From: Amoebophrya sp. A120
Lineage: Eukaryota > Protista > Dinoflagellata
Length of the DNA stretch: 64,000 nt
Direction: 5' to 3'
Assembly (NCBI GenBank): GCA_905178155.1
Contig: CAJINV010000024.1
Span: 352,715-416,714, forward strand
Under the pieces are notes generated by a model. It was not told the origin of the DNA. It saw nothing but the letters and a program-made list of their open reading frames with translations, and searched no databases. A program made the translations under genes and the position numbers. Shown here in pieces: positions 14,594 to 63,242 of the stretch. Every line of letters starts with the position of its first letter. The stretch's first letter is position 1.

Positions 14594-16612
14594 ATGTTTG
14601 GATTTAGGATTTTGCGGAGGTCGGGTCAACGGGTGGTTGCCCACACCAAGCACGTGCACCACGATGCCTTACCAACGATCAAACCTGTGTTGCCAGCAGG
14701 ACCCAGCATTGCTGTGCTGGAACACGGTCGAAAAAAAAACCTGACCATCGGGGACGGGATTGTATCCTGAGTAAAAACGTCCTCACATCACCAGATCTGT
14801 CATGCATATTTGCATGCCCAGAACAGCTACAGCACGAACACCTCTCGCGCGGCTCCCTATGGGACGAGGCATTTTGTAAGTAGTCAATTTGCGAGTCCGG
14901 GTACCGCTAAGGGAGTGAATTTGTGATGCGTCCGGAATAGTTCTCAGGCACGACTAGGGTATGTACTTATGTGAGTCGCAAAAGTTCGAGGCAGCTTGGC
15001 TTGCATCGTTCCTATCTTGCCTCTGGGTTGGGTGCGTTTTTACTCGGGATACGGAGAAAAGGTGCAGCCCGCGACAGTGGAGGAAGAGATTGTTCCGAGC
15101 GCGACTGTATCAAATGCAAAAATGTCTGTGTCTGGAAGGATTCGAGGTTTGTTATGCACATTTTGCATGACTCCTGGTCCTGAACCTGATGTCTGTGAAG
15201 CATGCCCTAGCATCACAGATTTTGTGAGGTGGGCTTCCTGATGCCTATACCGCATGACAAATGCTCTTTCTGTGTAGCAAAACTTGGACCCTCGTCTTTG
15301 CTGCTCATGCAATACAGATTTTTTTAGAATCCAAATGCAGCATCACGAGTTCCAACTTTGCAGACCCAGACATTTTTGCGATCCATAGACTGAGTCCACA
15401 GCGACGACGACCCCAGGGTCATCTAGAGTCGGAAGCAAAATCACCACGAACGAAGATGAGAAATCCAGCACGGCTGGGGCGGAGCGTGTGCGGAAAACTG
15501 TGACGTTTAGCGACCATGGGGCTGAGGTGCGGGAGTACGTGCCGGAGTCCGTAAAGGATATCCTGTGTAAAATCGCAACCCACGCCAGCATCGAAATGCA
15601 AATTGGACTTGTTCGAGACAAAGCCGGAAGTTTTGGCTGTTGAGCAACGATGCACATGATCTTCTTGTCTTGTGATTACAGCATGACACAAATTCCAGAA
15701 CCTCAGTAGTTACCATTTCTCAAAACCGTTTCGGGCATCATGTAGATTTGCATGACAAAAACTCATCTGGGGTGGGCCTCGCTTTTACTCAGGATAAAGT
15801 AGCAGTCCTTTGTGGCACAGCTGCTGTGCGAACTGCAATGGAGAAATACTACTCTCCACAACCTGCAGAAGGCAGCTGCCCGCCGTGCCAAAAAAAAGAT
15901 CCGCAGCCGGAACCACAGGCTGCGAAAGGCGACGATATACCGCGAGGACTGCCTCCGAGTCATGAATGCCGGGTGGCGGCGTGCCTACAACTACGTGGAG
16001 ACGAGGGACGAGGACGACAGCGATTTTTGCGCCAAGGCGGAACAGCATGACACGCCCGACGAACCGGGGCCGGTGCAAATGGTCGTCCAAAAGAGCTGTA
16101 GGATGACCATGCTCAAAACAACCGCGTCCCCTTCTTCACCTACACGACCCGCTTTGACCGCCAAGACCGTGACTTCGGTTGCGGAGACGTACTTGCCAGG
16201 AAGAAAGGGTGAGGGAACTTCTACAACCACTCCAGGTCCCTCGCAGGAGGAGGAGTCCTTTTCCGTTGCCCAGGAAGGTGGTGGTTCTACGGGATCGGAA
16301 GAAACGGCGCTGCTGAGGAAAAGCAAAAGGCTGGTGGTCCGCAAGAGCAATGCTGCAGAGGATCTTGCGCAAGAACAACTGGGAAGATGCGAACCCGGCA
16401 TCGGCGGATTCTTCTCGTACCTAAACTCCTTTCCTGCTCCGCCGCCCCTGGCCGTCCCAGCCGCACCCCAGCGTCGCACCACGGTCTTACCGCAGGGAAA
16501 CTACGTCCTGCGCGTGCGGCGGAGCGCCGTCGACACTTCGGTGTACAGGCTGGGAACGACGACTGCGCAGCCCCCGCGCCCGTCGTGGTGGGATTTGAAT
16601 CTTGGGTACTAG
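14594..16612 (+). CDS. Hypothetical protein; 4 exons separated by 3 introner introns; KTVTF (RVxF-like) motif
   Basis: Exons ~14594-14761, 15056-15106, 15392-15557 and 15801-16612 join in one open frame (GDGI|EKVQ...SAT|ESTA...SVK E|QSFVAQLL) when each element plus 5 nt is removed; start codon uncertain. Confidence 0.7.
14763..15051. mobile_element. Introner (tatcctgagtaaaaacg family)
   Basis: TIR tatcctgagtaaaaacg / cgtttttactcgggata; direct repeat decayed. Confidence 0.85.
15108..15387. mobile_element. Introner (tatcaaatgcaaaaatgtctgggtctgg family)
   Basis: ~30-bp TIR; perfect 5-bp direct repeat gactg. Confidence 0.95.
15559..15796. mobile_element. Introner
   Basis: TIR tatcctgtgtaaaa / ttttactcaggata; direct repeat aagga/aagta. 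Confidence 0.9.
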
Positions 16613-17164
16613 GACCGGAGGTTGCCGAAGTTGCAGTCACTCCCCCAAGATCATCCTCGTTGCAGATCTACTTCGCTCTACTACCCTTTTTACAGTGTAA
16701 TCAAAGTCAAAAGTAACCATTTTCCGCACCAAGAAGAACAAAGGACTGAACAATTACACAACCAAAGACGAAGATGAACATCAAAAGCTGAGATTTACTT
16801 TGAAAAAATACTGTCACACAAAGACCAAGCTAGCCTGCTGTTTAAGCCCCTAGTACCGGATTGAATTTTCTCGTTCACCTTCCCGCCCATGATTCGAATC
16901 ATGAGAACGACGAGCGCTGACTTTTTGACGACGATTTTTCCTTTTCCTCTACCGCACTCACGAAGATATTTCTACCAGTTTGATACAGCTCTATACGGTT
17001 ACATCTAGTACGCATTGACACAATTTTCCGAAGTTTTTGAAAGCCACCTGCTAAGTGACACCCGCTTTACAGCGCAGCAGCAGTCGAGCTGCAGTTGCTC
17101 GTCTTATAAGATTTTTTGAATTACTGCCGCACTTTGTGCGTTGTCGAGCCACCGTGCTCCATCA

Positions 17165-17372: not shown

Positions 17373-17624
17373 TATCAAATGTAAAAATGTCTGGGTCTGG
17401 AAGAATGCAGGTTTGTCATGCTTGTCTGGCATGACTCTTAAATTTGTCATGCACGCCACCAAAGAGACCCACTTTTCTGTCATGCAGAAACGCAGTCTGT
17501 CATGCTGAATAGGCAACACCTAGAAGCTCAGAAACGTGTCATGCTGAGCCAGCACTTGTGGCTCCCTCCTGATACGCCACCCAGCATCACAAGCTTCCAG
17601 ACCCAGACATATTTGCACTGCATA
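17373..17624. mobile_element. TAT...ATA element, same subfamily as 61525-61766; host gene not evident
   Basis: TIR tatcaaatgtaaaaatgtctgggtctggaag / cttccagacccagacatatttgcactgcata; perfect direct repeat ttatt. Confidence 0.95.
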
Positions 17625-18868: not shown

Positions 18869-18898
18869 TGCAGCTCCTACTTCTGTCCAAACACTAAC

Positions 18899-20433
18899 GC
18901 GTTGCCAGCAACGGTCGGCGCAAATACCAGAGCAAATGTGGCAGGTGCTGCGAGGAATATGTGGCCGTCATCGCGCGTTCGAATGGCGACGCCGGGTACA
19001 AATGACGATAAAGCACGTTGCTATCCACGGCAAATTTGTCTCGGTTTGAAAACTTGTCACGCTAAATTTCGGAGGATTGGAATACTTGCAATGGCAGTCA
19101 AGCATACGAAGTTTTTGGAACATCTTGCTCAGATGCCCAGCACGCATTACAGATTACGTTTTCACATCCACGTCAATAAGGAAGCTGTTCATTTGCTGCT
19201 GACGCAACACAGATTTCATTTTCAATCAGGAATGCAAGACACGCATTAATATTCAGACTCAAGCAAATTTGCAGTTGATAGTCGCGAGCAACGGCTATAA
19301 TATCGTGGCGACAAATGAATCCTACGGATGAACGCCGGCGCATTCGGCCTGCAGGCTGGTACCGTTTTATTCCCGTTTGGAGTCAATAGTGACAACCCCT
19401 CGGAAGGTGGAGTTGCGTTGCAAGCAACGCATGATAATTCCGGGGTTTGGTTACCGAACGTTGCCAGCAACGGTTTTTGGGCCCTCGCGTCATTGCTCCG
19501 GCTAATAGCACAGGATGTGTGATATTCGAAAATGACACGGTCAGCAGAATCAAGAGCGACAGTCCCCGGCGGCCACAACTGCGTTGCGAGCAACGTGGGA
19601 GGAGGGCGCGGGTAATACCCACGATGAGGAAGCAGCGCGTTGCCAGCAACGACTCTTCCTGCCCGTCGCTGGTACATGGAATCCCGGTCTGCAGTTGGAG
19701 GCGCAAGATCCGGTCTGCAGTTGGATTCTTCTTGGGACTCCGGTGGAGCAGCGTTGCCAGCAACGCATGATAATACCCGGGCTGCGGAACAAGACGTCGT
19801 TGCCAGCAACGGTTGTTGTGTCCTGCTTCCGTCGTCACTACTCCAGTGAAAATAACGATCAAACACTGACGCGTTGCCAGCAACGGACGGTGCAAATAAC
19901 AGAGCAGATTCGTGTGGCAGGTACCGCGAGGAAGATGTTGATGTGCTTCAAACCTGCACCAACGAGAGGCGCTGCCAGCAACGCTAATTGCGGCTGCGAA
20001 GTTGGCGTCACAGGATTTCGGCCTTTAGCGAGTGGGCTACGGTGGTCTAACCGCGGAAACACGACAGCTCGTTGCGAGCAACGACTGCGCAGCGGCGCTG
20101 TGAAGAAAAGGTACTTTCCGCGACGGCAAAACGATTCTACGAGGCACATCATCCGGTCTGCAGTTGCATTTTTCTTGGGAGTGCGGTGTCCAGGATGCTG
20201 ACGGTCCGTCCCCCTGTGAAGCAGCGTTGCCAGCAACGCATGATACTACCGGGGCTGGGTAACAAGACGTAGTGGCCAGCAACGGTTCATGTGCCCTGCT
20301 TCCCTGGTCACTGCTCCGGTGAAAACGAGGAATGTAAACGTGATTTTTTGCGGTCCGGCTTCATCCTGCAGCGTCGTGCAAAAAGCGAGAACAATGTATC
20401 CGGTGGTAAAAAGAAACGCGTTGCGAGCAACGC
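18899..20433. repeat. Array of ~13 dispersed 14-bp palindromes CGTTGC-NA-GCAACG
   Basis: Copies at about 18900, 19416, 19459, 19582, 19637, 19752, 19798, 19872, 19970, 20070, 20225, 20271 and 20419. Confidence 0.8.
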
Positions 20434-20523: not shown

Positions 20524-21192
20524 AGTACCCAGCCAGAGGTCTGCTACCCGAGGTGTGGGGAAAAAGTTCGCAAAGTCGACCACTAATCCAGGACTCGAGT
20601 ACCTGACCGGAGGTCTGCTACCCGAGGTCAGGGAAAGATCAAGAACATGCCCGGGCGGAGCGGTCGACAAGCAATAAGAATGTCGAGTACCCAGGCGGAG
20701 GTCTGCTACCCGAGCCGGGGGAAAGAGGAGGAGCTGTCGGCAAATACGGAATTCGAGTACCTGGCCGGAGGTCTGCTGCCCGAGGTCAGGGAAAGATGAA
20801 GAAAAAGCCCGGGCGAAGTTGTCGATCAGCAGTACAAAGTTCAAGTACCCAGGCGGAGGTCTGCTACCCGAGCCTGGGGAAAGAGGATGTCGGCAAATAA
20901 CACGGAAATCGAGTACCTGATCGGAGGTCTGCTACCCGAGGTCAGGGAAAGATGAAACACAGGCCCGGGCGAAGTTGTCGACCAACAGTACACATTTCAA
21001 GTACCCAGGCGGAGGTCTGCTACCCGAGCCTGGGGAGAGAGGATTTCGGCAAATAGCACGGAAATCGAGTACCTGGCCGGAGGTCTGCTACCCGAGGTCA
21101 GGGAAAGATGAAACACAAGCCCGGGCGGAGTCGACAAGCAGTACACATGTCCAGTACCCAGGCGGAGGTCTGCTACCCGAGCCTGGGGAAAG
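20524..21192. repeat. Alternating dimeric repeat with core GGAGGTCTGCTACCCGAG (9 copies, ~70/~87-bp spacing)
   Basis: Core counted directly; two spacer types alternate. Confidence 0.9.
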
Positions 21193-21609
21193 ACTAGAGG
21201 AGGAGCGGCCGGCACATGCGGGCACAGTCGAACGGGTGTTGCACAGCAGAGCAGTGTGGATTTTGCAATCAGCAGGAACCGTCCCGCAGGTGCAAATGGT
21301 AATCAACAGCGAACGGCCACAATATAATGGCGCAGGAAGGCAAGTATCCCGGAGCTGCAACTTTTTTCGGACGTCCCGCTTGCGGGTAGGGGGCGACGGT
21401 ACAGAGGCGTGGCTGGGGCCCTGTACAGCTGCAGCACGGATAAGATGGCACGAATTTGATATCCTTTGGAGATGCTTGCTCTGCAACAAGAGTGAACAAG
21501 GACGGACAGCAGAAGGATTTCTTTTCAACTACCTCCCGAGAGCAGTGCTGCGGCAAGCTGTTTTTTCCGCACTGCCGTCCCGATAAAAAAAGAAGAGCAA
21601 CAAGAACGA

Positions 21610-25080: not shown

Positions 25081-26800
25081 CTGGACGCGCTTGGCGCGCG
25101 AACAGTTCTCCATGGGAAAACCACCCCACAGTGCCCCGACCTGCATCGCCGACGGCTGGACGCGCTTGGCGCGCGGACAGTCAGCCCAGGACACCAATTG
25201 CGAGAGAGTAGCAGCCCAGGGAGCAGCCGCGACCACGACTGGACGCGCTTGGCGCGCGGACAAACAGGCAGCGACGCGCTCGAAGGAACCGCAACAGCAC
25301 CAGGACCCGCAGTGGTGGCTGGACGCGCTTGGCGCGCGGACAGAAAGTCAAGGACGCCTCAGCCACGAGAGAGGAACAGCCCAGGGAGCAGCCGCGGCCA
25401 CCACTGGACGCACTTGGCGCGCGGACAGACAGCACTAGGACCTGCCGTGACGGCTGGACGCGCTTGGCGCGCGGACAGTCAGTCAAGGACGCCAGAGCCA
25501 CGAGAGAGGAACAGCCCAGGGAGCAGCCGCGACCACGACTGGACGCGCTTGGCGCGCGGACAGACAGGCAGCGACGCCTTCCATGGGACCGCGACAGAAC
25601 CAAGACCCGTCGTGACGACTGGACGCGCCTGGCGTGCGGACAGTCAGTCACGGAAGCGGGCAACTGGAGAGCAACAGCCGAAGGAGCAGCTGCGACCACA
25701 ACTGGACGCGCTTGGCGCGTGGACAGTCGGTTAAGGACGCCAAAGCCACGAGAGAGAAACATCCCAGGGAGCAGCCGCGACCACGACTGGACGCGCTTGG
25801 CGCGCGGACAGACAGGCAGCGACGCCTTCCACGGGACCGCGACAGAACCAGGATCCGCCGCGACCACCACTGGACGCGCTTGGCGCGCGGACAGTCAGGT
25901 AAGGACGCCAGAGCCACGAGACAGCAACAGCCTAGGGGGCAGCCGCGACCACCGCTGGACACGCTTGGCGCGCGGATAGACAGTCAAGGACGCTTTCCAC
26001 GGGACCGCTATAGCACCAGGACCCGCCATGACCGCTGGACGCGCTTAGCGCGCGGACAGACAGCCAAGGGCGCCAGACCTACGAGAGAGGAACAGCCCAG
26101 GGAGCAGGCGCGACCACCACTGGACGCGCTTGGCGCGCGGACAGACAGGCAGCGACGCCTCCCATGGGACCGCGACAGAAGCAGGACCCGCAGTGACGAC
26201 TGGACGCGCTTGGCGCGCGGACAGTCAGTTAGGGACGCCAGAGCCACGCGAGAGCAACAGCCCAGGGAGCAGCCGCGACCACGACTGGACGCGCTTGGCG
26301 TGCGGACAGACAGTCAAGGACGCTCTCCACTGAGCCGCGACCGCACCAGGACCCGCCGGGACGGCTGGACGCGCTTGGCGCGCGGACAGCCAATCAGGGG
26401 CGCCAGAGCCACGAGAGAGGAACAGCCTGGGGAGCAGCCGCGACCACCGCTGGACGCGCTTGGCGCGCGGACAGACAGTCAAGGACGCTTTCCACGGGAC
26501 TGCGACAGAACCAGGGCCCGCCGCGACGACTGGACGCGCCTGGCGCGCGGACAGACAGGCAGCGGCGCGCCCAAAGGAGCCGCAACAGCACCAGGACCCG
26601 CCGTGACGGCTGAACGCGCTTGGCGCGCGGACAGGCAGGCAAGGACGCCAGAACCACGAGACAGCAACAGCCCAGGGAGCAGCCGCGACCACCACTGGAC
26701 GCGCTTGGCGCGCGGACAGACACTCAAGGACGCTTGCCACGGGACCGCGACAGAACAAGGACCCGCCGTGATGGTTGGACGCGCTTGGCGCGCGGACAGA
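25081..26800. repeat. Alternating dimeric repeat (~165 bp = 85+80) with 25-bp core CTGGACGCGCTTGGCGCGCGGACAG, ~22 copies
   Basis: Core counted directly; spacers fall into two related classes. Confidence 0.95.
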
Positions 26801-34410: not shown

Positions 34411-34411
34411 N

Positions 34412-48500: not shown

Positions 48501-51500
48501 GAAGAGGTGGAGTTATCTTCGGATGGCGAGAAGGAGGAAGAAGACGCAGATATCCTATGTCAAAACGTCCCCATCCCATGGCTCTCATGCAAATCTGCAT
48601 GCTCGAAGGATTTCTCATGCGGAGCGTAATCAGAGGCATTTTCTAGTCGTATTTTAATTTTGGGATTTGTCATGGTCCAATCGGCATACTATGTTCCAAA
48701 TTTGTGATGCAACTGAACTAGCGAACAAGCAGGATGACATTTACTAATGCGAACTTGTAATGCGCAGCAAGGAGTAGGAAATAAGCTGGGTCTTTTGTCT
48801 AGCGGATTTCCCCTCTTGACTCTGGGGTGGGGACATTTTTGCTGAGGATAGAAGAAGAGGAAGAAGTAGACCCCGATTTGCCGGAGGCCGTATCATCTGC
48901 AAGTATGTCTGGGTTCCCTGAAAGTAAGATTGTAAAGTTGTAATGCTGATCATTTTGCACCAGAAGGGGGAAAATCTGTCTTGCATAGTCAGCACGAGAT
49001 GCGCACTTTTTGTCTCCTGGACAGGGCGTTTCTTATTCAGGTCAAGCCTGAAGAAGCCTCCGCACAACGCGATCCGCTCTCAGTGCATTTCAGACCTTCA
49101 GGCAGACCCAAAAACAGCATGACAAATTAGCTCTGCATTCATCTTCCAGACCCACACCAGACGTTTGCATTTGATACGCGGGGGAGCAGATGGAGTACAA
49201 CCCCGTCCTGCTGGGTGACGCGCCGATTCCGGACGATGCCTGCGCAGTGTGCTTGGAAAAAGGAAGCGACTTGTTCAGCTTCGGACTGATGTTCCGCGAA
49301 ATGTATCTCGCTATGATCGAAGAACAATCCTTCCGCGCCGCAGGGTTCCTGGTGCGTTTGCAACTCCATCCGAAAATTTTCACCCCGGGGTGTGGGTGCG
49401 GCCGCAAAAGCACACGGGCAGGAACCCGGCGGCGTGGAAATTTTTCGAAAGAATATTTCGAATCAACATGGAGTCGAAGTATAACGAGGCGCACGCTTAC
49501 ATACTCCACCAGCAGGGCATCGACCTGAACAATCTCAAAATCCGCTCGCAAGAGGAATACAAGATGTTCATGTACCAGTTCTGGCACTTTCACTGCAGCT
49601 TGTTGGATCCCAAGGGCGTGCCGGAAGAACACAAGGACTACATCTACATGGATGTTCTGCGCAAATTCGGGCCAGGCAACAAGGGACTGGAACCAAAATT
49701 GAAAAAGGGAATCGAAGGTACACTATAAAGTTGTTTTTGCTGTAGTTCTTGAATGGAGTCAGATCACAGGTGGAGTTTGCAAAAATGCCTTGTAGAAGGA
49801 GGTCTTGGTGTGTGTCGTGTATTGTGCTGTGGTTCAGGACGCTGGAGTTTCTGGCGATTTTTGTGTTTGGGTGTTTACGATAAAAGATCATGGAATCGAA
49901 AATAAATGCCAATACAGCGTTCCTCAAAGAATCCAAGGCGGCCAGTGCGAAAAAAGATGGTCCCGACTTCCACCGCCTCTGCGTGCAGTTGACCAAGTTA
50001 TCCTGCGTAAAAAGCGTCCTTGTCAACTACACAGAGAAGTCGTATGTTATTGGTTCTTGCATGCCCCTCCGAATAACCGGAACGTGTGTCATGCAACACT
50101 CATGAAAATCATATTAATTGCGACGTTTTTTGGACATTTGTCATGCAAAGTTTGGGATCAGAACTAGGTGAAAACCCGAACTCCGTGTAGCCGCATGTAT
50201 GACCAGAAGCTGTGTGGGACGTCCTTGATGGCAAATTTGCCCGACTGGCCTCGGCTCCAAATAGCGGTCATCCCGTGCATCTCTATACAGCTTCTCGACT
50301 GAAGGACGCTGCACAATCATGAATCAAAGGCGACATGGACGTTTTTAGGCAGGATAGTAATGGGACCCGGCCGTGTATGCAAAGAAAAAAGTGTTACAGC
50401 TACATATTGTGTTGCAAAACATACAAGACAGGCGATCTCTGCCATGCGCAAAGTGCTTGCGAGTCTCCTTTTGTGTGTGTTTTGCCTTATGATCTCTGCA
50501 TTGCAAGTCCTCTCCGTCATGCGAGGCAAATTTGTGATGCTGAATTCACTACAAATGTGTAACTCTAAATGTAACACTTTTTTCGTTGGATATCGTACGG
50601 CACAGCGGATTGACCGATGATTTCCTCCGCGAATGCCGCATTTTATCGAAACAGCGTTTCGAGGAAGCTGCCTCATCGGGGTCCGAGTTGATGTTCGACT
50701 TGAAGGCGCCGCTGCCAGTGCCGGAATCCATGGCGCCCAGGATTCAGGACAACGTCAATGACTTGCTCGGCCCGCTGCTAGAGGACGCCGATGAGGACTG
50801 CGATAGGGTGGAGGCCCGCGAAGACCTCAAGGGAAAGGAAACCGAGAAACGTCAGCTGTTAGAGGAAATCGAGGAGAAGGTCAAGGAAGAGACGAGCACA
50901 AAGATCGCCAAGAACCTCCATATAATGCTGTACAACGAGAGGCTATCCCAATGAAAGAGCTAGTTCCCCTGACACAAACCGAGACTTGTGATGGGAGATG
51001 TGTGTGCGCGAATCATCTTCTCTGGCGAGCAGACAGCAGGATGCTTCTGTGATGATTTCTTTGTGTAACAAGTTCAATTTGTCATGCACAGCGTGGCAGG
51101 AAAAGGAAAACCTTCGCCGGTCATACTGACTGACGAGATACGTTAGCTTTTCTGACTTCACGCGAGAAGAAGTTGATTGGTGTACAATAGAAATTGATGG
51201 GTACTTCTACCATCAATTTTGCACACAGATGACGCCCGGAGAATTTCAGTTTTTTCAGTTTGATAGACACCGCTCTTGGACGACGCAGGCAATTTTACGG
51301 GCGAGGTGAAGCCGAGGAAGGCACCCGGCTACGTGGCCGAGATGCAGCGCAAGCACGCCGCTTTGGCCCCCGAGTTCTGGGGCACCGCGTACACCAGCAC
51401 GGGTGATGTGGTATCACATCATCTGACAAAGCTAGTTTACTTTTTCAATGACTTCATATGCTCACATCTATACGTAGAAATACATTCATTTCTGGCGTGG

Positions 51501-53461
51501 AACATTACATTCATTTCTGGTTGTGCTAGACGGATATTTTTTCTACAAATCACATAGCGAAGAAGATAAGGAGGTATTTTTTGTTTCCCAGGTGGAGACG
51601 ATGACAGAAGAACAGCGTGCGGCGTTCAAGGACAAACGACCTATCAAAATGCGAGAGGCTTCCCACACCATTTCTCATCTCAAAGTCAATCCGCATCACC
51701 TGTTCTGCATTGAAAATTGCACCCACCGATACGAAGAGAAATTTGCCCACGTGAAGATCAATCCACGTATCATTTTGTGATGCTTCCCCGCAGAAGATGC
51801 TGCTTCGTTTCATGTCATGTTCGATTATGGTGCAGAGGGTTCTTGCAGCAGGATAAATTCGGATCCAAATTTCCTCAATCCCAACGAGATCGGCGAGAAC
51901 GGCCGAGAACGTAGTCCGAGGCGCAATGCAGGTAAATTCTGTTGCGTTCGCTGCAGACCAGAAACCGAACATTGCTTTTAAATTTCGTGAGCTGATGGAT
52001 TTATTTTCACGTTGCGACTTGTGATTGTGCCACAAATCTGGCGTTCTTCGTGCATGAAGACAGTATACGAAAAGTTGACAAATGATCCAAAATCTGCATA
52101 CCACAGGCTTAAACAACAACCAGTTGAACCTGCTCGCTGATGTCGATGATATCGACGATGTCGACGCTCTGGCGCAAAATGTCGACGCCGACACAACCGT
52201 CCTGATCACCGTGAACGGCAACAGGAAGATATCCAATACAAAAATGCGTGGCGGTGCAATTTTTTGGATAAGATTCACTTGCTTGCGGCATGACAAACCG
52301 GCTCGAGAAGGGAATTCAACTACTATGCCCACCATTGCTAAGTTGTCTTTTCTGTTTCTTTGGCAGGGCAGGAGATGAAATGGTCTTGCGTGACAGGCTC
52401 TGTCGCCACAAATTTGCACTGAGCATTTTTTTTTTTTGGATAGCGTACGATCCAGGATGTGCTCAACGACTACGAACCGAAACACGGCTTTCCCGGCAAC
52501 GGCAAAAGAGCACGGTATCAAGTGCAAAAATGTCTGGGTCTGGAAGGTTGCAACTTGTGATGCTGTCTTTGGAAGGTAAAAACAATCTGTATTGCATGAC
52601 CAGCCAGGCGAGTTCAGTTTGTGCTACACGGAGTGGGCGTTTCTCATGCGGAATACGCATCAGAAGGCCCGTTAAAAATCTATGATGCTAGGTCATGCAT
52701 TACAGCCATCATGGGTTATGCAAGATATGCATGACAGACTTGGCAATCGTCCAGACCCAGACATTTTTGCACTTGATACACGGACGGCGGAGACCAAAGA
52801 GCACTGGGACGTGATACGGCTGCGTGTCGTGCCGACGCCGGATGGCGCAGGAGCCGCCGATCCGACGGGTAACATCGAGCGCAACCGTATCCTATGTAAA
52901 AACGCCCCCACCCCAAGGTCAAGATGGAAAATCTGCTAGTCTTTCACGCTTCGGCCCAGGGCATCACTGTATTTAGCTATTATGGCCGCATCTAAAATTG
53001 ATATTGAACATCAGACTCCATCAAAGCATGACAAATTCCAATGCGCCTTCTTTGGAAAGTGTCGCTTATCTTCAGGAAACTGCGCATGAGACACATCTTC
53101 AGGGTGAATATGGAAAATTGCATGATAAACTTGTCGTGGTAGGAACATTTTTACTGAGGATTGACCGAAAGAACTGGACGAAGCACTGGTTGCCAAACAA
53201 CCCGCTGTTAGTTTACGGGACTCTCAAGCGTTACACCAGTGACTGTATACATGAATGATATTGTAATTGTGCAAGACTACCTCTACCAAAATAATCTGAT
53301 GATGAGTGAAAGGGCTAGGCTTGCGAGTTGCTGTTGCAGGCTTGGCAGTGATTCTATTGCTACCTAGCGCATCCTCGAGCGCACATCGCACGATGTACAT
53401 TGAGTGGTCGGGTGGTTTCACGGTCGCATTGATTCTGTCTGCATCGCAAAAAACTATGTAG
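45560..53461 (+). CDS. Divergent Ser/Thr protein kinase with long C-terminal extension; at least 12 introner introns plus several GT-AG introns
   Basis: Spliced motifs in order: DGAFGKV, LAVKVI, MREAAINL, IMPQAMMS, HRDIK|PSNMLL, RICDWGSAK, SDLFSFGLMFREM, LTK|WDPAV|RHS. 3' end and a few internal junctions unresolved. Confidence 0.88.
45906..46233. mobile_element. Introner
   Basis: TIR tatccattgagtgtgtgtccgggtc / gacccagacacatatgcaatgcata; direct repeat gaacg/ggccg. Confidence 0.85.
46353..46631. mobile_element. Introner
   Basis: TIR tatgcagtgcaaa / tttgcaatgcata; direct repeat decayed. Confidence 0.8.
46688..46931. mobile_element. Introner (stop-free, in frame)
   Basis: TIR tatcccgaggaaaaatgt..catccc / gggatggttacgtttttcctcaggatg; removal restores kinase spacing between hinge and helix E. 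Confidence 0.8.
47203..47507. mobile_element. Introner splitting the kinase catalytic loop
   Basis: TIR tatcatagtcaaaactgcc / ggcagttttgaatgtgata; lies between the HRDIK and PSN codons. Confidence 0.9.
48551..48850. mobile_element. Introner
   Basis: TIR tatcctatgtcaaaacgtccccatccc / ggggtggggacatttttgctgaggata; direct repeat gcaga/gaaga. Confidence 0.9.
48891..49176. mobile_element. Introner
   Basis: TIR tatcatctgcaagtatgtctgg / ccagacgtttgcatttgata; direct repeat ggccg/cgcgg. Confidence 0.85.
49999..50356. mobile_element. Introner
   Basis: TIR tatcctgcgtaaaaagcgtcc / ggacgtttttaggcaggata. Confidence 0.9.
50376..50592. mobile_element. Introner (same family as 3607)
   Basis: TIR tatgcaaagaaaaaagtgttaca / tgtaacacttttttcgttggata; direct repeat ccgtg/tcgta. 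Confidence 0.9.
50944..51265. mobile_element. Introner (degenerate TIR)
   Basis: tatcccaatgaaag / tttttcagtttgata; direct repeat gaggc/gacac; frame restored. Confidence 0.7.
52230..52442. mobile_element. Introner
   Basis: TIR tatccaatacaaaaatgc...gtgcaattt / aaatttgcactgagcatttttttttttggata. Confidence 0.8.
52516..52778. mobile_element. Introner, inverted relative to 15108-15387
   Basis: Perfect TIR tatcaagtgcaaaaatgtctgggtctgga; perfect direct repeat cacgg. Confidence 0.97.
52888..53162. mobile_element. Introner
   Basis: TIR tatcctatgtaaaaacg / catttttactgaggatt; direct repeat aaccg/gaccg. Confidence 0.85.
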
Positions 53462-54237
53462 CAGCGACCAATGTAACGGTTGAGAATGCCATATGTTGAA
53501 CAAGTTCGGCGGAGCGCAGCGAAAACTGCAGCATGCAAGGAACAGCAAAGTGCTATACCCCCGGGCGCGCCCGAATGAGGATGTCGTGATGATGGAAGAA
53601 TAGGCTCGGTTATGACTACTTGTGACAAGAAGAAGATGACTTTATTCGCTGGTGGACAAAATATTTGAAATAAAGGAAAGTATGTAGTTTACTATGAAAA
53701 GGCAAAGGTTGGCTTCGGTTTTTGTATGCAAAGGCTTCGTTCCCGAAGCCCCTGGAACGAAGCACAAACTCATCAGCTTCAAAATTTTTTGTGGTGTTTC
53801 TGTTTACTGTTAAGTAAAATAATTCGTTGTCGCCCCTTCTTTCTATTGTACGCACCTACCATTATTTGTCTTGCTGACATAGGATATCTTGTTTTCGATT
53901 TATATGCGATATTTATGTACATTTGCACGAGATCTAAGAAAAAATGGATTTATCTACGCTTAGTACGTCACGAACTAGGTCTTTCCTACGCAAATTGTAC
54001 TGTATGGGAACCGTTCACAAGATGACTCATCCGTTAGAGAAATGGAAACGGACGAGTAATGCGTTAGACTATTCAGCAGCAACAGTAAACCGGAGAAACA
54101 GCAAGGCGGGCGCTCTTCTAGGTTTGTGAAAGGTGTAGCGCCGCAAAGTATACATCAAGCAGCAAACCGAGTTGTCGGGCTTTTGACTTCACAGGGGCCT
54201 ACTGGATATTCAGGTGGGTCATTGGCCGTTTCAACAT

Positions 54238-55581
54238 GGTCGATGCCCGGTCGGGTCGGGTCCATGGCCGGTCGGGTCGGGTCTCTGGCCGGTCGGGTCG
54301 GGTCCATGGCCGGTCGGGTCGGGTCCATGGCCGGTCGGGTCGGGTCCATGGCCGGTCGGGTCGGGTCCATGGCCGGTCGGGTCGGGTCCATGGCCGGTCG
54401 GGTCGGGTCCATGGCCGGTCGGGTCGGGTCCATGGCCGGTCGGGTCGGGTCCATGGCCGGTCGGGTCGGGTCCATGGCCGGTCGGGTCGGGTCCATGGCC
54501 GGTCGGGTCGGGTCCATGGCCGGTCGGGTCGGGTCCATGGCCGGTCGGGTCGGGTCCATGGCCGGTCGGGTCGGGTCCATGGCCGGTCGGGTCGGGTCCA
54601 TGGCCGGTCGGGTCGGGTCCATGGCCGGTCGGGTCGGGTCCATGGCCGGTCGGGTCGGGTCCATGGCCGGTCGGGTCGGGTCCATGGCCGGTCGGGTCGG
54701 GTCCATGGCCGGTCGGGTCGGGTCCATGGCCGGTCGGGTCGGGTCCATGGCCGGTCGGGTCGGGTCCATGGCCGGTCGGGTCGGGTCCATGGCCGGTCGG
54801 GTCGGGTCCATGGCCGGTCGGGTCGGGTCCATGGCCGGTCGGGTCGGGTCCATGGCCGGTCGGGTCGGGTCCATGGCCGGTCGGGTCGGGTCCATGGCCG
54901 GTCGGGTCGGGTCCATGGCCGGTCGGGTCGGGTCCATGGCCGGTCGGGTCGGGTCCATGGCCGGTCGGGTCGGGTCCATGGCCGGTCGGGTCGGGTCCAT
55001 GGCCGGTCGGGTCGGGTCCATGGCCGGTCGGGTCGGGTCCATGGCCGGTCGGGTCGGGTCCATGGCCGGTCGGGTCGGGTCCATGGCCGGTCGGGTCGGG
55101 TCCATGGCCGGTCGGGTCGGGTCCATGGCCGGTCGGGTCGGGTCCATGGCCGGTCGGGTCGGGTCCATGGCCGGTCGGGTCGGGTCCATGGCCGGTCGGG
55201 TCGGGTCCATGGCCGGTCGGGTCGGGTCCCTGGCCGGTCGGGTCGGGTCCATGGCCGGTCGGGTCGGGTCTCTGGCCGGTCGGGTCGGGTCCATGGCCGG
55301 TCGGGTCGGGTCTCTGGCCGGTCGAGTCGGGTCTCTGGCCGGTCGGGCCGGGTCCCTCCCTGGCCGGTCGGGTCGGGTCCCTGGCCGGTCGGGTCGGGCC
55401 GATGGCCGGTCGGGTCGGGTCCACGCATGGCCGGTCGGGTTGGGTCCATGGCCGGTCGGGTCGGGTCTCTGGCCGGTCGGGTCGGGTCCATGGCCGGTCG
55501 GGTCGGGTCTCTGGCCGGTCGGGTCGGGTCTCTGGCCGGTCGGGTCGGGTCGATGGCCGGTCGGGTCGGGTCGATGCCCGG
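54238..55581. repeat. 21-bp G-rich minisatellite GGTCGGGTCGGGTCCATGGCC, ~63 copies
   Basis: Seen directly; homogeneous centre, variant units at the edges. Confidence 0.98.
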
Positions 55582-57175
55582 GCCGCATACGCCTGTAGTT
55601 TATTTTTTCTTTCGCCCGCGACCGCGATCCGACTACTATTGTCACGTCTGATTGTAGGCGAAGCAAGTTCCTCTTGGTGCCGCAAGCTGAACATCTATCA
55701 TAGATTTTTCGCGGAATTGTATCAAGAAACCAAGTAGCAGTTTCTTGGTAGAGGCACTACGAGCAGCCTGCTACAAGCGAAAGAAGATATCTGCGTGGCC
55801 TCGGTTTCTATGTGCTACGTGAACCTGTCTTGCTGGACCAGAAACCAAAAGCAGCCTTCTAAGACGCGGCAATTAGTCACGCGCTTCTTTCAATACATAA
55901 TTGCGTTAGTTTAATTATATATCTCTAGAGCGTTTTTTCTTATTGGCGAGCCGTATTCGTGGCAGAAGATGAAGAGCAGTTTCGTATTTTCTTTTCGTTT
56001 ATTTTGCGAGTCTGTATTGTGTACAGCTGCAGCAAGGAGGACGAAATAAAGTAAGTAGCAAGGCGAAATCTGCACAGTTCGTCCCGGAAAAATAGACAAA
56101 TCAAAAGCAAGCAGAAAGAGCCAAACTCTTTGTACACAACACTTTGAAATACTAAAATGCGATCCCGATCGCGATCTCGATGTATCACCTCCGCCGTTGA
56201 AGCCGGCGCATGTGATGCTACATCACAGCCTAGACGAGGCACGACCGGTGTTCTAGCGCTTATCGACTGCTGCCTTCTTTGTTACCCGGCTGTGAGGATC
56301 GATATTAACGACAATGTTTTTCAAAGTGTGCCACTGTCTTCTGTCCAGCAGAAATAAAGATCAAGAAGCTGTGACTCCTGAGGTGGGCCAAAGACTGAAT
56401 ATCAGCCACCTAATATTTTCTATGTTGTCTGGCGCTGGCGGACTCGTCAGAGATGTGCAGCTTCCTGCTGCAAGTATGATTCAACGAAACGCGCCGGACT
56501 AATGCATGCGCACAAACGGTCGCAGTATTGCTAGTGTCCCATCCACACTTGCAGTACTTAACTTTCCCTTGCAGCAGCAGGCGTCTTGTTGCTCTCGCTA
56601 GAGAGGTAACCATGACATGCAAAGATATATTTTCATGTTCGCTTTTAGAATCACATCCGATATGATGTCGCGCAAATTGATATAGTAGTGCCTACTTCTT
56701 GGCGTGTTCATGGTCCGTCGCAAACTCGGAGAGAAGTTTTGTCTCGCTCGATCGAAAACGAGAAAAAGCAATCCACGAGACGCACTTTTTCGACGTGGTC
56801 GCCCGCGCATTCGGATCAGTTTTTTTCTTCGCTTCGTTTTTTCGTTTTCTTCCGGTCTTCCCCTATCGAAATCGAAAGCATTTGAAGTGGAAGCCGCAGT
56901 GCTCAAAGGCGCATTGATTTCATGATGATGACCATGAAAAACCTGCAACCCACATGACAGGGATGGTGATTTTTTTATTGCGGCACAATAGGGCCAACGA
57001 CTCTTATTCGAAGCACCCGGGTAAGAAATAAATAGAAATTACATAGTAAGTTGTAGCAATAATACCTAGAAGTTGCCTGCTCTTCCGTGGCATCAACTAG
57101 TAGCGGCACAACCACACAACTCTTAGTACTGTGCCATCCTTCAGTAGAATCCTGTGCAGGGGTGCTTCGGTGCGG

Positions 57176-58030
57176 TTAGGGCGGAAAAGTCGGCAAATGC
57201 CATCACTTTTGCAAGCGCACGTTTTGGGAGGGTAAAAAAACTTTTTTTGTTGGGGGCGCAACATCTTGGAAGTCGACACGCCTCGCGTGTCACTTGATCT
57301 TTTCCGCAGGAAACATGATGGCTGAGCTTTGGAAATGCCGCAACACCAAGACCAGAAGCAGGCCACAGCGCCCTCGCCCTGTGCGCTGTCATTCAGATGG
57401 CCGGACGTTGTGTCGTGGGCCCGCTCTCCGATCAGGGGCCGGGCCGCCTCCGTGACCGGGGCTCGACGAGGCCCATCGCCTGGAAAAGAAGGCCCGGCAG
57501 GGGGGGTGGTCAGGGGGGTGCATTTTTGCCCCCTTCGGACACCCCTTCCGGGTACCCCTTCCGGGTAGCTTTTCGGTAGCCTACGCCGACCCCCAAATCC
57601 CCATTGGAAACTGCTGATTTGGAATGGCCCAAAATGGTAGCCCAACGGCAGCCCAAGCGGACCCCCTTACCCCCCCCCTTCGACACCCCCCCGGACGCAC
57701 CCGACTGGCGGCGCGTCCGCATTTTCAACATCCGGCCGCAGAGGGAAGATGAGAAAATGTCTGGGCGCGTACGGAATTGGATGTGGGAGAGGGGGCGCGG
57801 CTTCTCGCGCCGGAGGGCCGCAGGCCTGTGCAACTTCAGCAAAGTGCTGCGGTTCTATTGGAAAAAGGGGAGGGCCGGATGGCGGACCGTGACAACGAAC
57901 AGTGGCGCCAGCGGCTACATGGCCAACAGGAAAAAGAGCAGTGTCGATACCCCCAACAGCCACAATTTTTTTGCCCCCCCAAAATGCGCGCTCGCGAAAA
58001 TGATGGCATTTGCCGATTTTTCCGCCCTAA
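57176..58030. mobile_element. 855-bp non-autonomous DNA transposon with ~90-bp TIRs and 5-bp TSD
   Basis: ttagggcggaaaagtcggcaaatgccatca... versus ...tgatggcatttgccgatttttccgccctaa; tgcgg on both sides (57171-57175 and 58031-58035). Confidence 0.92.
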
Positions 58031-59194
58031 TGCGGATTGTAACTTGGATAACAGCCGGTGCGTTGTGGTGTAGCAGGATTGCAATCCAGTATATCTTCAT
58101 CAAACTTATTACAACGGATACCCGTGTAACTTTCCACAACTACTTCTGGTCAGGTCGATATCTTTTTCTAGATTGCCGGTTCTATCTATGTGGGTGATCT
58201 GGTGTCGCATCCCGGCACCGGGTTTGTAGATACAAATTCGAATGCAGCGCCGCCTGCTTTATTTGGTTTTCGCAGAGGAAATCGATGTTGTGCAAAGTTG
58301 AAGAAAATCGGCCCCATATATTTCGCTCTTCATCGTCTTGGCGTGGTGGGTCGTAAGCAAGTAGCTCAGGTTCGTGACTAGACAACTTCGAGCGTCGAGT
58401 TTTTCTGCGACAAAACTTCGAGGGAACGCGACCCGATTATAAGAATCGACATCGGTTCGAACGTGGGAATCGTGAAAAGCAAAAAGATAAATCACAAACG
58501 TAGTCGCAAAACTACAAAATCAAAAATAACCAGTGCCGCTTGATACAAAATAACCGCGTGGGGCAGCCGCAAGCAGCCTGTCGACCTCACCCAGAATTTC
58601 ACATGAACTCCAGGTGCTTGATGACTACTAGCACAGACAGAACTACGGAGGTTTTTTGACAAACATTATTGCGATCGCCAGGGTCTGCTCGTCTCGGCGG
58701 ACTGAGAAGAAAACATCACGTCGTGTTGATGATTCTATCCAGCAGCCGGAGACACTAGTATGTGTTGTTGCGAAAGAGTCGACAAAGAAAGGCAAACATA
58801 TATAGAATTTCATACCCAAATGGCAACATTGAAACTGCAGCCCTTCTTGTCTGACTTGTGAGCCACCAGCGGCCGTCTACCGCACCTCAGTTGGCATCCA
58901 GACCAGAATGATGAACAACAAGGGGAAGTGCAAAAATAGGAAGAGGGCCCAGAGACAAAGCATAATATCATGTGCGACAACTTGGTCTTCTGTTTCTCTT
59001 AAACACGACAAGTGCCGCAGGTGTCTAGTATTGTATATTGAACTGCTGAGAATTGTACATAGAACTGCTAGTGCCGGACCTGCAATACGTCACTAGAAGG
59101 ACAATTTTGACATCTTATTTTTGACGCGACGCTTGAACTTGTTATGCTGGGGGCGAAAATGTCAGAGTGACATGAAAGCAAAAATTCGATTAGT

Positions 59195-62100
59195 GTGGTA
59201 AGAACTTCGAAGCTAACAAGTTGTCAAACGGGATACAGTACTCTCCTCCAGGAAGCGCAGTTCGACAAGTTCATTCTGCCACTGGTCCAAAACCAAGCAG
59301 CCTCATCCGGCGGACATCCTGCCACGCCTCTGTTCAGCAACTGGACGGAGTTTTTGCACCTTCTCAACACGTCGGAAGCGGACCGCCGCAAGAAAGAGCA
59401 GGAGACCCTCCCGCAGACGGAAGGACAAGCGGCGCGTGCACGTGCAGAACAATCGCGGACCACGACGTTGCTGCCTCAGGAATCTGAACCTGACAAAAAT
59501 ATCAAACCCGACAAGAATCGCGAACCTGATTCTGAATCTGAAGACGCAATAAACGCCGAACCCGAGTCCGACGGCGTCGATGGAGATCCCTTCTTGAAGG
59601 AGAACCTCTTCAAGGAGAACAAACATGGGCTGTGGACCGCAATGCCGGAATGGGCTGCGAACGACCCGCACGTGCAGCGCATCCTGGAAGCGGTGAGGGG
59701 CCCCGAGGAGCACCTGTCGTTCCCGTGCAAACGCGCCTTCGTAGCGGGGGTCAACGTCACGGGAGACGATTTGGAAGCGGTGCATGCATACCAACTGCAA
59801 GTATAATGTCTGGGTCTGTCGTGTCGGAGAATGAATGCAGCTCGCGGACCCTCGGGTTGGCAATGCTGTACTGGTTTTTGCAATAAATGTATGGGACTAT
59901 TAAAAAATTTTCTCTCTATTATATCGAGCGGTGGATTCAGTTCATTTTTTGAACGGTATGCTGATCCGATGTGGAAGCAGGGTTTTCTGCTGTGCTGTAA
60001 CTACACCACCTCTTTGAGGGCGCTTATCCACAATAATGCTGTGCTGTTACACCTTGGCTTTTTATAGTTTGAGTTGCGTACCAACACCGTGTGAAGTTGG
60101 TACTCTTCTCGACCCAGACATCTTTCCAATTGATAATCAAAGACGGAAACAGATAATTGTAGTTATCCACTGTGAAAACAGCTCCATCCCTCAATCTTCA
60201 CGTGAGGTGTCAGAACATAACATGGCTTTATTGGGACAAAGAGCCATGATATGTTTTCGTTTATTATAAAGAAACACGAAATCGGTTATAGTTATACTAT
60301 TTGAAGTTTTGCATGGATGGCAACCTTCCGTGATATTTAGGGCGAGGGCTGATTTTGTGGAGCATATGGGCCTTGTCCGCTGGACTGGATTTCCCGCAGA
60401 AGAACGCGAAGGAAAACGCACCAAGCGTGGTGTCCTTGGGCAACAATTTGGCCCTCAACCAGCAGACCGCGCAGGCGAAGAGAAGTACTGCAGTTTCGGC
60501 AGATCATCCCAGCGGTCGTGCATCGTCTCCCGACAGCACCGAAGCAAAAGATACTTCATCTGCGCCGGCCGAGGCCGTCGAAGAACGCACTGCTGGGGAA
60601 CAAGAAAGCGACCACCGGTACTATGCGGATTCTAGCGTGAAGCAGCATCTGCTCAGCACCGTCGTTGACGACGTGGTGCGAGCGAACCCCCGGCGCATTA
60701 CGAAAGAGTATGCAGTGATCCAGCAGGAGGGCGAGGCAGCTTCGGATGGAGTTCTCTCCGTGGATTTCGCGCACGCCGCATACTTAACCGACCGCCAGTA
60801 CCTGGCGCTGGCCCTCCAGAGAGCGGAGGACGTGCAGGTCTTTCTCGCCCGCGTTGAGACCTACGCCGCACTGTTTCAGCAGGTGCTGCACGACAAAATT
60901 CATCACTTCCAGCGTCTAGCGTCGTACTGCGAGTCGCAGGTGAGGAGCATCGGCAGGTGCACCGGAAGGAGCAGCATATGGGCCGCCTGGAGTAACAAGT
61001 CGAATATACGATGGATTCCAAATCCTCACTCCAAGAAATCCGAAAAGGAACAATATGGCGGTAAATCTTGCGTGTTGCTTCTTTTACATCGGGACGTGTG
61101 CCATCCGTAGTTGTTTTTTATCATCATTTTTTGTGGTGCTCGGCTTACATATTCTGCGTGTCGAAAAAGAAAAACCAATCTTCAGCATATTTCCTTGGTA
61201 GCTTCGCTGGAGCGGGCGTCGACCATGTCCTGCGACGTCTCGCGAAGAGCGGGTTTTTTCCCGAACTGGCGTTCAGCGTGACGAATATGGGCGGGCACGC
61301 AGTCGCCGAGGGGAAAGCGGAATGTGTCCGGTCTGGGCCCCTCGAAGAACGGCGGAGTTCGCAGTTCAAGAAGAACCTTCCCTCGCGCATCCTGTGGAGA
61401 GCACGACAGGGCGAAGAAACCAAACGCTGGTCCCTGTCGCTGTCCGTAGAGGACACGCTCCACTGCGCGCTCAGCCAGAAGGCAGCGGCCGAGCTCCGAG
61501 AGTTCCAGGTGCAGTCCGGAAAGATATCAAATGCAAAAATGTTTGGGTCTGGAAGATTGCGAGACTTGTCGTGCTTGTCTGGGATGACCAAAAAGTTTGT
61601 GATGCGTGTCCAAGAAGAGACCCTTGTCTCTGTCATGCAAAAACGCAGTTTGTGATGCGAAAAACGCAACACAGCGAAGCGCATGCTTGGCTGGGCATTA
61701 CAGAGCATTCACTATTCCCAACGCAGCATTACAAGTCTCCAGAACCAGACATTTTTGCATCTGATAAAAGAAGATTCTGCACCACTGCGGCCTCAGCAAG
61801 GAGCTGATTGAGGGCAAGTGGTTTCGCTTTGCTGACCATTTCACTAATCCCCTGTCACTTCCAGCTTCTGACCAAGGAACTTGGGCTCCACCCGCGGGCG
61901 CCCGGATCTCGTCCAGGGATCTGATCATGGAGGATGAAACGTTGAAACCGCCAGCGGCGTTCGCCGAGCCGGTCCTGTGGACGGCGCAGAACGGAGACAC
62001 CCAGGAACAATGGCACAACGCTTTCAACTTTGCCGGTACCATGTCACCCCTGCACGTCTTCCGAAGAACGCACCGCATTGCTCGCGTCGCGAGCCGGTTC

Positions 62101-63242
62101 GCCCCCGACGCGCAGAAAAACGACTGCTTTTCGCGGCTGAGAACGCCTGAAGAGTTCTCGTTTGCCTTCGTCACCAGCTTCTCGCAAGACTTGACGTCGC
62201 TGCGGGCGGGGTTGGGCCCCTACAGCGGCATCACTGACATCGGCCTGACCAACCACTCGGCGGTCGGCAAAGACAGAGTTAGCATGAAGCGCAGAGGGTG
62301 CCCGTTGGACCTTTTTCTGTTCGCGGACAGCCTAGACCACAGAAAGTGGTCCGGGACCAGTGATGAAGAAAACCGCAAGATACAGCTTCGCACGACCGTC
62401 AACTATGCATTGCAAAAGCATTGCGCTAGTACAAATCGCCTGAGATGAAATTATTAATAATTGAATTTGTCATGCAGATTCAGATAAGGAAGTGTAGTTG
62501 GTTCGTCATGCAAGACTTTTCCGATTTCTACGAGCACGAGAGCTTTGCACAGGATATCGCATACGATATCACGAAAGTACAACCCGCGGATCCGCTGCAG
62601 GACAGATGGGGTGTCATTCTGCACATCGAGCGGCACGGCCCACCTGACCAGGACCAAGACGCGCCGAACGTGTTGCAGGAGCAGGCGACTACTCGGTACT
62701 ACCTCGAAACGGAAGCGGAGGTGGATGAGTTTCTGGTAGAGTTGAATGCAATATGCAAGATCGGAGCGGAGGCTAGGGCGCAGGCGGTGAAGGATATTAT
62801 CGCGCTTGGCACAGAGGCGATGACAGTGCCATACGAGCATGCGTTCACGCTATCTTCGGATAGAGGCCCGTACGTCCCGTTTGGATTGACGCATTTTCGG
62901 ATCGAGGAGCTGGACAACATTGGCGAGGAGAACTCGGCTGCCAGCGAAGATGATCGCGTGGGGAACGAAGCTGCAGATGGTCTTGTCGAGGAGGAGTGCA
63001 ATAGCCAGCAAAATGAACCGCAGGACGAGGAAGGCAACAGCTCCGACCGGGGGACCGATGACCACAACTCTGCCGACAACATGATTGGCCTCGAGAAACT
63101 CGGATTCCCAACTTGGCTGGAGCTCATGAAGCTCACGTTTTCCCACCGATTCCAGCAGAGCCGCAGCGCCGAACCAGTTCCAGCCCGAGCTCCGATTCAA
63201 ATTTCCTGCAGCTTCGCTGTCCGGGGGTGGTCGGCGTCGTAA
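59195..63242 (+). CDS. Large hypothetical protein (gene B), paralog of 39469-44257; 4 introner introns and one probable GT-AG intron (~60940-61200)
   Basis: Collinear similarity to gene A: VVRANPRRI/AIRSNPRVI, TDRQYLALALQRAEDV/SDREYAAVALQRAQDV, PLDLFLF/PLDFFFL, DPLQDRWGV/DPSRQRWGV; 5' start uncertain. Confidence 0.85.
59789..60135. mobile_element. Introner
   Basis: TIR taccaactgcaag..atgtctgggtc / gacccagacatctttccaattgata; direct repeat atgca/atcaa. Confidence 0.8.
60164..60366. mobile_element. Introner (degenerate)
   Basis: tatccactgtgaaaacagc / gctgattttgtggagcata; frame restored. Confidence 0.65.
61525..61766. mobile_element. Introner (subfamily of 17373)
   Basis: TIR tatcaaatgcaaaaatgtttgggtctgga; perfect direct repeat aaaga. 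Confidence 0.95.
62404..62556. mobile_element. Introner (short, degenerate)
   Basis: tatgcattgcaaaagc / gctttgcacaggata; direct repeat tcaac/tcgca; removal joins ORFs 61927 and 62445 in frame. Confidence 0.7.

Follow-up and report, generated by a model that had tools for sequence, protein, structure and literature searches.

A fixed splice register for the inverted-repeat introners of Amoebophrya sp. A120

The dinoflagellate Amoebophrya sp. A120 carries inverted-repeat elements, known as introners, within its genes, and we analyzed those found in a 64,000-nucleotide (nt) stretch of contig CAJINV010000024.1 (assembly GCA_905178155.1, positions 352,715 to 416,714 of the forward strand), hereafter the window. 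The window holds 39 such elements of 132-358 bp, 34 of them inside four plus-strand genes (3 in gene A, 8 in B, 18 in C and 5 in D) and five outside genes. Our data make it very probable that introners leave the RNA by cuts placed 1 nt ahead of the element and 4 nt beyond it, irrespective of the terminal bases. The introns have the form 5'-N-UAU...AUA-NNNN-3', and the direct repeats that flank the elements can decay without shifting the cut. The elements are known; the fixed splice register is newly resolved and well supported, and its mechanism is now directly testable.

Junctions were read from assembled contigs of four sequencing runs matching 39000-53400 (the best-supported 15 of 33 joint rows) and of four matching 56200-64000 (all 11 rows). 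In the former, 12 rows yield 13 element junctions, alongside two GT-AG introns and one repeat cross-match; the latter comprises five element junctions, one GT-AG intron, one element with TTA ends and four repeat cross-matches. The cross-matches (44105-52552, 58030-61525 and three rows at 61555-61631) were left out. The contigs of runs X1 and X4 pass over GT-AG introns retained in those of X5 and X6, and on this ground they were treated as derived from transcripts. Among these joints, the element plus 5 nt is removed at all 18 element junctions. When slippage within the repeat is allowed, removal of one upstream base fits 18/18 junctions, mismatched repeats included, compared with 10 for none, 8 for two, 3 for three and 2 for four. 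Four junctions allow only the -1/+4 split (P=4e-9 against a uniform distribution of splits from 0 to 5). None of the 18 can be read as GT-AG, GC-AG, GA-AG or AT-AC. Yet at 15 of 31 sites a GT..AG pair that would keep the frame is available no more than 12 nt away. Moreover, splicing by the rule reproduces the deposited proteins P0001, P0002 and P0003 letter for letter at 31/31 junctions, where other splits reproduce 7-23. A first-pass annotation, made from the letters of the window alone, had proposed both this rule and the disuse of nearby cryptic GT-AG pairs. Both hold at the transcript junctions, and the rule also at the protein junctions; the open frames on which the rule had been based do not test the split, because removing 0, 1, 2 or 3 upstream nt keeps the frame open at 31/31 sites alike. 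Raw RNA runs X9 and X10 gave 38 and 2 partial reads, on repeats only, with the genes not covered.

Such joints could in principle arise from reverse transcriptase slipping across hairpins between direct repeats. A hairpin with a direct repeat is the signature of these falsitrons (PMC8240250), and all RNA data used here are derived from cDNA. However, no repeated base is present at the junction in 4 of 18 joints, and the 5-bp repeats of the genic elements match at two or fewer positions in 13/34 (perfect in 6/34), while disruption of the repeat is reported to abolish a falsitron in CD19 (PMC8240250). The single fixed split is likewise unlike a falsitron, and element removal is needed to encode the kinase of gene C, where one unambiguous joint restores the HRDIKPSN catalytic loop. 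We regard slippage as very improbable.

The asymmetry of the split follows the transcript rather than the element. The elements at 46353 and 48891 belong to one family in opposite orientations (core alignment: 89 in reverse versus 39 in forward orientation, z=33), and the splits they allow are {1,2} and {0,1}, with the mirrored split of 4 excluded for both. A minus-strand gene for a mirror test was sought in the window and none was confirmed, and element orientation was used instead. Since the bases removed with the element amount to one repeat, a fresh insertion at any site and in either orientation leaves the mRNA unchanged. This may also explain why offsets look variable in the literature: the A120 genome study describes splice sites that vary relative to the hairpin (1-5 nt), with no signature at the intron ends (Farhat 2021, PMC7789003), whereas we find one split and the code N-UAU...AUA-N4. 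Because taking out element plus 5 nt would restore the sequence as it was before insertion, no matter where in a fresh repeat the cut lies, the published spread probably reflects slippage of alignments within the repeat.

The elements stay in the DNA and are removed from RNA. DNA contigs of X5 and X6, runs from one sample, cover 57955-61551 and 61710-64000 with no differences from the window; they run through four of the five gene D elements and its GT-AG intron and show no element-skipping joint. Excision from DNA in some life stage, as for the internal eliminated sequences of ciliates, would involve symmetric cutting, staggered so that 3-nt overhangs remain at the center of the 5-bp repeat. 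The -1/+4 split would be geometrically compatible with such a cut, the elements resemble DNA transposons, and the DNA evidence is one sample in contigs, which drop rare forms. Yet these contigs, at depths of 45 and 27, keep the elements, and at mismatched repeats a symmetric cut would leave the downstream copy on the template strand, whereas transcripts always carry upstream positions 1-4. Furthermore, one transcript contig is missing at least 13 elements of one gene together with GT-AG introns. We therefore regard DNA excision as very improbable.

The window exons match Amoebophrya sp. A120 proteins at 100% identity, and the elements are the published A120 introners, which are described with TAT-N7-AAA inverted repeats, direct repeats of 3-5 nt (5 bp in the example), RNA-supported non-canonical ends, a hairpin and ~29,850 copies (PMC7789003). 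The TAT-N7-AAA inverted repeat, the direct repeat, non-GT-AG removal from RNA and repeated families are all found here, and the end motif listed by the first-pass annotation was thus already in print for A120. That annotation counted about 31 elements, 27 of them in the four genes. They are real: strict TAT-N7-AAA...TTT-N7-ATA pairs 100-400 nt apart occur 24 times in the window against a mean of 0.6 (maximum 4) in 50 simulated windows. The counts needed correction: a relaxed search returned 29 elements, and the totals of 39 and 34 given above were reached with the help of RNA joints, deposited proteins and reading by hand, with one further element of the TTA-ended type. The ends said to be common to all survive as a consensus present on both arms, the strict motif standing at both ends of 17/34 genic elements, and the 5-bp repeat is perfect only in the six already mentioned. 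The view that unrelated families share only their ends did not survive, as several elements are one family and the motif TGT[ACG][AT]TGC lies inside 30 of the 39.

This motif occurs 79 times in 10 kb of elements compared with 14 times in the 44.5 kb outside them and 1.8 times in shuffles. Forward copies fall mainly in the 5' half of the element (31/43) and reverse copies mainly in the 3' half (27/36). A pattern scan gave 129 loci (L001-L129), all from one public assembly whose relation to A120 is not established, with 234 elements, of which 232 contain the motif. It was not found in the text of the genome study (PMC7789003), and it is a candidate transposase or splicing-factor site common to several families. 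A satellite at 28800-38100, with a 99-bp unit (53 copies at 99%) and variants, carries the motif 69 times and is possibly derived from introner sequence; the sole N of the window, at 34411, lies inside it.

Of the 234 outside elements, 181 are flanked by a perfect 5-bp repeat without compositional bias; repeats of 6, 8 or 9 bp were not found. An asymmetric family at these loci occurs in both orientations (25 versus 20). A frame test on the 234, which is weak, gave 89 for removal of element+5, 87 for +8 and 48-61 for other lengths. Terminal inverted repeats (TIRs), a target duplication of fixed length, insertion in both orientations and a size too short to code suggest that introners are MITE-like DNA transposons (MITE, miniature inverted-repeat transposable element), with a 5-bp target duplication. 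Nine open reading frames (ORFs) of the window match no Pfam family, and no transposase search was made. The introners of Aureococcus, Micromonas and Symbiodinium with TIRs and target site duplications are similar, in that they are DNA transposons without autonomy and lose one target duplication when spliced out; however, they carry or co-opt GY/AG sites and so need particular targets (PMC9860276), whereas the A120 elements need no target sequence.

What the cut reads is a separate question, and the first-pass annotation had placed the cut at a distance from the base of the terminal stem rather than at a sequence. End-to-end pairing is indeed predicted in 34/34 introns, with 10.7-28.9 pairs between the terminal 30-mers compared with 0-6.7 in five canonical introns. 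However, the terminal UAU/AUA helix is predicted at P>0.5 in only 21/34, and the position of the predicted stem base varies. Pairing is seen in 55-74% of elements at arm positions 4-8 and in 82-100% at positions 9-14, with the bases just outside the arms pairing at chance level. The cut is unmoved where the terminal helix is predicted to be open, e.g. at 49312. In transcript orientation, T at +2 and A at +3 are present in 38/38 window elements, A at -7 and T at -6 are likewise invariant, and deviations fall at +4 (3) and -5 (3). All five canonical introns of the window start with GTA.

The outside elements were oriented by a codon score trained on genes B-D, which called 148/234 and left 86 uncalled, with 36/36 multi-call loci consistent; ORF length called only 27/234. 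T at +2 is found in 148/148 and A at +3 in 147/148. Over window and outside elements together, the A at -7 is changed in one case compared with seven for its partner at +4, the latter mostly to mismatches, and wobble pairing explains four of six changes at -5 and none of seven at +4. Taken as a prediction for the outside set, 7/8 outer/inner deviations fall in the predicted class (p=0.035, one-sided), and the pooled asymmetry gives a Fisher p of 0.005. Because the elements insert both ways, a transposase cannot produce an asymmetry in the direction of the transcript, which points to base reading on RNA, for which this comparison of arm sequences offers moderate evidence. It is a short motif (+2 U, +3 A, -7 A) on which the cut is anchored, rather than strictly the base of the predicted stem.

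We propose that introners may be removed by a U1-independent form of the ordinary spliceosome, with the element's own ends read as splice signals. The long hairpin would join the intron ends in place of U1 small nuclear RNA (snRNA); the 5' arm would supply U+2 and A+3, in the same register as the canonical GUA with +1 relaxed; the 3' arm would supply the near-invariant A at -7 as branch point; and the 3' cut would be set by distance from A(-7), without AG. Measured against U2-type introns, the elements possess U+2/A+3 and lack GT/GC...AG ends (1/34 is GT-AG under the rule), with A(-7) as a candidate branch. The U2, U4, U5 and U6 snRNAs and 83 of 89 proteins are reported from A120, and U1 snRNA was not detected there (PMC7789003). 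In Table S4 of the same study, all nine of the commonest non-canonical ends of A120 start with NT and all nine of strain A25 start with TT, and the A25 repeat starts with TTA (PMC7789003). Judging from that table and the TTA repeat, U+2/A+3 probably recurs in A25 though the offset from the repeat differs. Fixed short distances between branch and intron end are described for Yarrowia, Trichomonas and Giardia (PMC2483917), with the A at -6 and -8 by count, so that A(-7) falls between the fixed branch positions of Yarrowia and of Trichomonas/Giardia. The U2 spliceosome of tunicates handles genomes with 95% non-GT-AG introns (PMC13326754). The A120 situation resembles that of Fritillaria, where most introns are non-GT-AG and the U2 spliceosome is thought to splice them; it differs in that Fritillaria has biased ends (AG-AN according to Farhat) and keeps U1, and the term "inverted repeat" is absent from the text of that report (PMC13326754). 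Together, the canonical register of U+2/A+3, the precedents for a fixed branch and the lack of detectable U1 narrowly favor splicing by a spliceosome whose bridging by U1 is taken over by the hairpin. We give the whole explanation, -1/+4 cutting by a U1-independent spliceosome, about an even chance of being correct.

Several points weigh against it. To our knowledge, no spliceosome ignores the A at -2. The base at +1 is free (G10 C9 T8 A7) and the last two positions form 14 different dinucleotides in 34 introns, the arbitrary ends that the first reading had described, and the 148 outside elements show no terminal base preference either. The putative branch A lies inside a predicted helix in 21/34 introns and without a steady U2-pairing context. 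Introns conserved between A120 and A25 stay 98.6% canonical, which suggests two systems. The closest analogue, in Euglena, yields circles and not lariats (PMC11282704). The arm asymmetry is modest, with a Fisher p of 0.14 for the outside elements taken by themselves; among the oriented ones three deviate at +3 or -6, and the search required near-TAT ends, which inflates the apparent conservation. As for the register, two gene C boundaries were set using P0002 and the deposited models may draw on these RNA data too, which leaves them short of independent support, and the joints come from contigs of a single study (X1, X4) with one contig per run, in which minor alternative cuts would be hidden.

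The complete indifference to terminal bases, the pairing of all 34 introner ends compared with so few pairs in the canonical introns, and the strict GT-AG ends that canonical introns retain would all favor a separate, non-spliceosomal machine obeying the same rule. Here an endonuclease would bind the hairpin end with UAU/AUA, make a staggered cut 1 and 4 nt outside and hand the ends to a ligase; we consider this a serious contender, albeit one that is probably wrong. Its architecture is that of the non-conventional introns of Euglena, which follow the code N3-CDG...CHG-N5-6 with required spacer lengths, proven by mutation (PMC12501133), and which are excised as the circles noted above; for diplonemids, an RNase III and a ligase have been proposed (PMC12621601). 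The likeness extends to MITE-like elements, inverted ends, free terminal bases, a motif at fixed spacers from both cuts and GT-AG introns alongside (PMC12501133, PMC11282704), and the A120 elements do possess paired ends with fixed spacers. However, Euglena uses CDG/CHG with spacers of 3 and 5-6 and opens the exon with a purine (PMC12501133), whereas A120 uses UAU/AUA with spacers of 1 and 4 and needs no purine. The A120 elements carry N1-TAT...ATA-N4 and not the Euglena signature, and a purine starts the downstream exon in 21/34 cases here and 93/148 outside, like the flank background. The lineages are unrelated, and A120 excision removes exactly one target duplication. Against such a machine, U+2/A+3 coincides with the 5' register of the spliceosome in two repeat types that are unrelated, the cut stays put where the terminal helix is predicted to be open (as at 49312), and no candidate enzyme was identified in this analysis. 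It is conceivable, if less than probable, that A120 has a second, non-spliceosomal mRNA splicing machine with the code N-UAU...AUA-N4 formed by hairpin and motif, indifferent to every splice-site base and independent in origin of that in Euglena, which tracelessly heals any insertion of the transposons that duplicate 5 bp, in introns numbering in the tens of thousands.

A hidden minor (U12-type) spliceosome is very unlikely indeed. N-TATCC(T) does stand in the register of the U12 5' splice site [G/A]TATCCTT, the U12 3' site is distance-dependent (PMC3584512), and the inverted-repeat U12 introns of Physarum polycephalum provide a precedent, sharing RTATC at the 5' cut, a short fixed branch distance and some non-canonical termini (10.1101/2020.10.12.336362). 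Yet Physarum alone has a TA target site, a +1 purine, a TTTGA branch 9-12 nt upstream and U12 snRNA (10.1101/2020.10.12.336362). In A120, U11, U12, U4atac and U6atac are reported absent (PMC7789003); the introners have a +1 purine in only 17/34, unsteady CC at +5/+6 and unsteady bases at +6 to +8, and no U12 branch motif 9-13 nt upstream. A search of Rfam found no family in the window, and no U11/U12/U6atac-type snRNAs were found there.

We found no statement of a fixed offset or of an N-UAU...AUA-N4 code in the literature on Amoebophrya introns and introners, a search from which most subscription papers, theses and the figures of Farhat fall outside. The literature compared included PMC12130899, PMC9860276, PMC11282704, PMC11453091, PMC12787238, PMC13326754 and a preprint on a Karlodinium strain; Fig. 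3 and S19-S25 of the genome study might reveal the offset more fully than the legends state it (PMC7789003).

The junction evidence above derives chiefly from gene C (45560-53603, plus strand), which encodes an 817-aa protein kinase (Pkinase match E=1.5e-10) with 18 introners and four GT-AG introns (47001-47161, 49718-49917, 51411-51591 and 51932-52106); its model is identical to P0002. Unambiguous -1/+4 RNA joints were observed for 47203-47507 (GT..TT, inside the HRDIKPSN motif), 48142-48455 (TAG start; TT..AG) and 49312-49455 (CT..TC). RNA joints of element+5 were also observed for 45906-46233, 46353-46631 (in reverse orientation to 48891), 46688-46931 (last base deviating), 47584-47809, 47839-48053, 48551-48850, 48891-49176 and 50944-51265, and RNA joints support 49999-50356 and 50376-50592. 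The five others are 51642-51855, whose boundary was set by P0002; 52230-52442, which P0002 supports; 52516-52778, with perfect 25-bp arms and repeat; 52888-53162, with a deviating last base; and 53214-53493, with a TAC start, found via P0002. An alternative boundary at 51768-51855 also kept the frame and was rejected as wrong against P0002. The transcript contig of this gene runs gap-free for at least 837 nt upstream of the ATG (44723-45559). Between the introners at 49999 and 50376 lies a 14-nt exon (50361-50374); this and a 23-nt exon in gene D (60140-60162) are both present in transcript contigs, and such micro-exons between adjacent introners suggest intron-by-intron definition.

Gene D (58908-63242, plus strand) encodes a 989-aa paralogue of gene B, with five introners and a GT-AG intron at 61061-61185; its model contains P0003 exactly and is supported by RNA joints. 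The introner at 62404-62556 has an unambiguous -1/+4 RNA joint (CT..GC) and is kept in DNA. Joints of element+5 were observed for 58966-59235, 59789-60135 (TAC start) and 60164-60366, all kept in DNA, and for 61525-61766, of a high-copy family, whose perfect repeat renders the split uninformative. Gene B (39469-44257, plus strand) encodes a 945-aa protein without a Pfam family, and its rule-spliced model contains P0001 exactly. Its eight introners, each intron running from start-1 to end+4, lie at 39488-39762, 40047-40198, 40255-40579, 42652-42919, 42982-43126, 43243-43546, 43705-44014 and 44081-44212, and the part of a transcript contig between 42646 and 44217 measures 386 nt, as the rule predicts. 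At 40255-40579 the rule-defined ends happen to be GT..AG, the sole such case among the 34; introners of this kind may account for the 15% of canonical A120 introns reported with repeats (Farhat 2021, PMC7789003). Genes B and D are paralogues that have diverged (32% across the stretches that match), neither with a Pfam family, and a third paralogue, P0004, lies elsewhere; no relative of either was found outside A120. Their introner positions differ, with no common intron column in a weak alignment. No orthologue of genes B or C was found in other species, leaving the pre-insertion sequences unreadable.

Gene A (14594-16612, plus strand) is predicted only. Its 406-codon frame opens only when element+5 (or +8) is removed at three introners, 14763-15051 (repeat 1/5), 15108-15387 (repeat 5/5, in reverse orientation to the 26923/42652/52516 family) and 15559-15796 (repeat 4/5). 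No database protein was found for candidates of 147-471 aa, and these three elements are without RNA or deposited-protein support. Elements of the same type outside any known gene lie at 17373-17624, 19022-19280, 26923-27190 (of the 42652/52516 family) and 28276-28574, strand not given. An element of the 50376 family at 3607-3812, likewise outside any known gene, is flanked by a direct repeat of 6 bp instead of 5, which was seen in no other element.

The TTA-ended element (57176-58030, strand not given) is 855 bp long, with TTA-N7-AAA ends, 81-nt arms, a perfect 5-bp repeat and a longest open frame of 163 codons. Its TTA start is of the A25 type; Farhat describes introner families as strain-specific (PMC7789003). 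It is skipped as element+5 in one X4 transcript contig (depth 2.3) and retained in DNA contigs, and the skipped copy is either a spliced product or an empty-site allele. Tandem arrays occur at 54238-55581 (21-bp units), 25294-26839 (85/165), 20595-21193 (156) and 7272-7943 (225 bp). The window elements match no viral contigs among those compared.

The removal of about two thirds of A120 introns was left as an open question in the genome paper (PMC7789003). In place of variable sites lacking a signature, the fixed register offers a code that can be tested at three positions (+2 U, +3 A, -7 A), and it indicates where a lariat should be sought. It explains how transposons can invade coding exons at any site and in either orientation at no cost to the protein, and A120 gene models could be re-called without GT-AG priors. 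Either outcome would be notable, whether a spliceosome disregards the dinucleotides at both intron ends or a second splicing chemistry has converged on that of Euglena. If the latter proves true, non-spliceosomal and independent, then transposon-healing splicing would have evolved at least twice.

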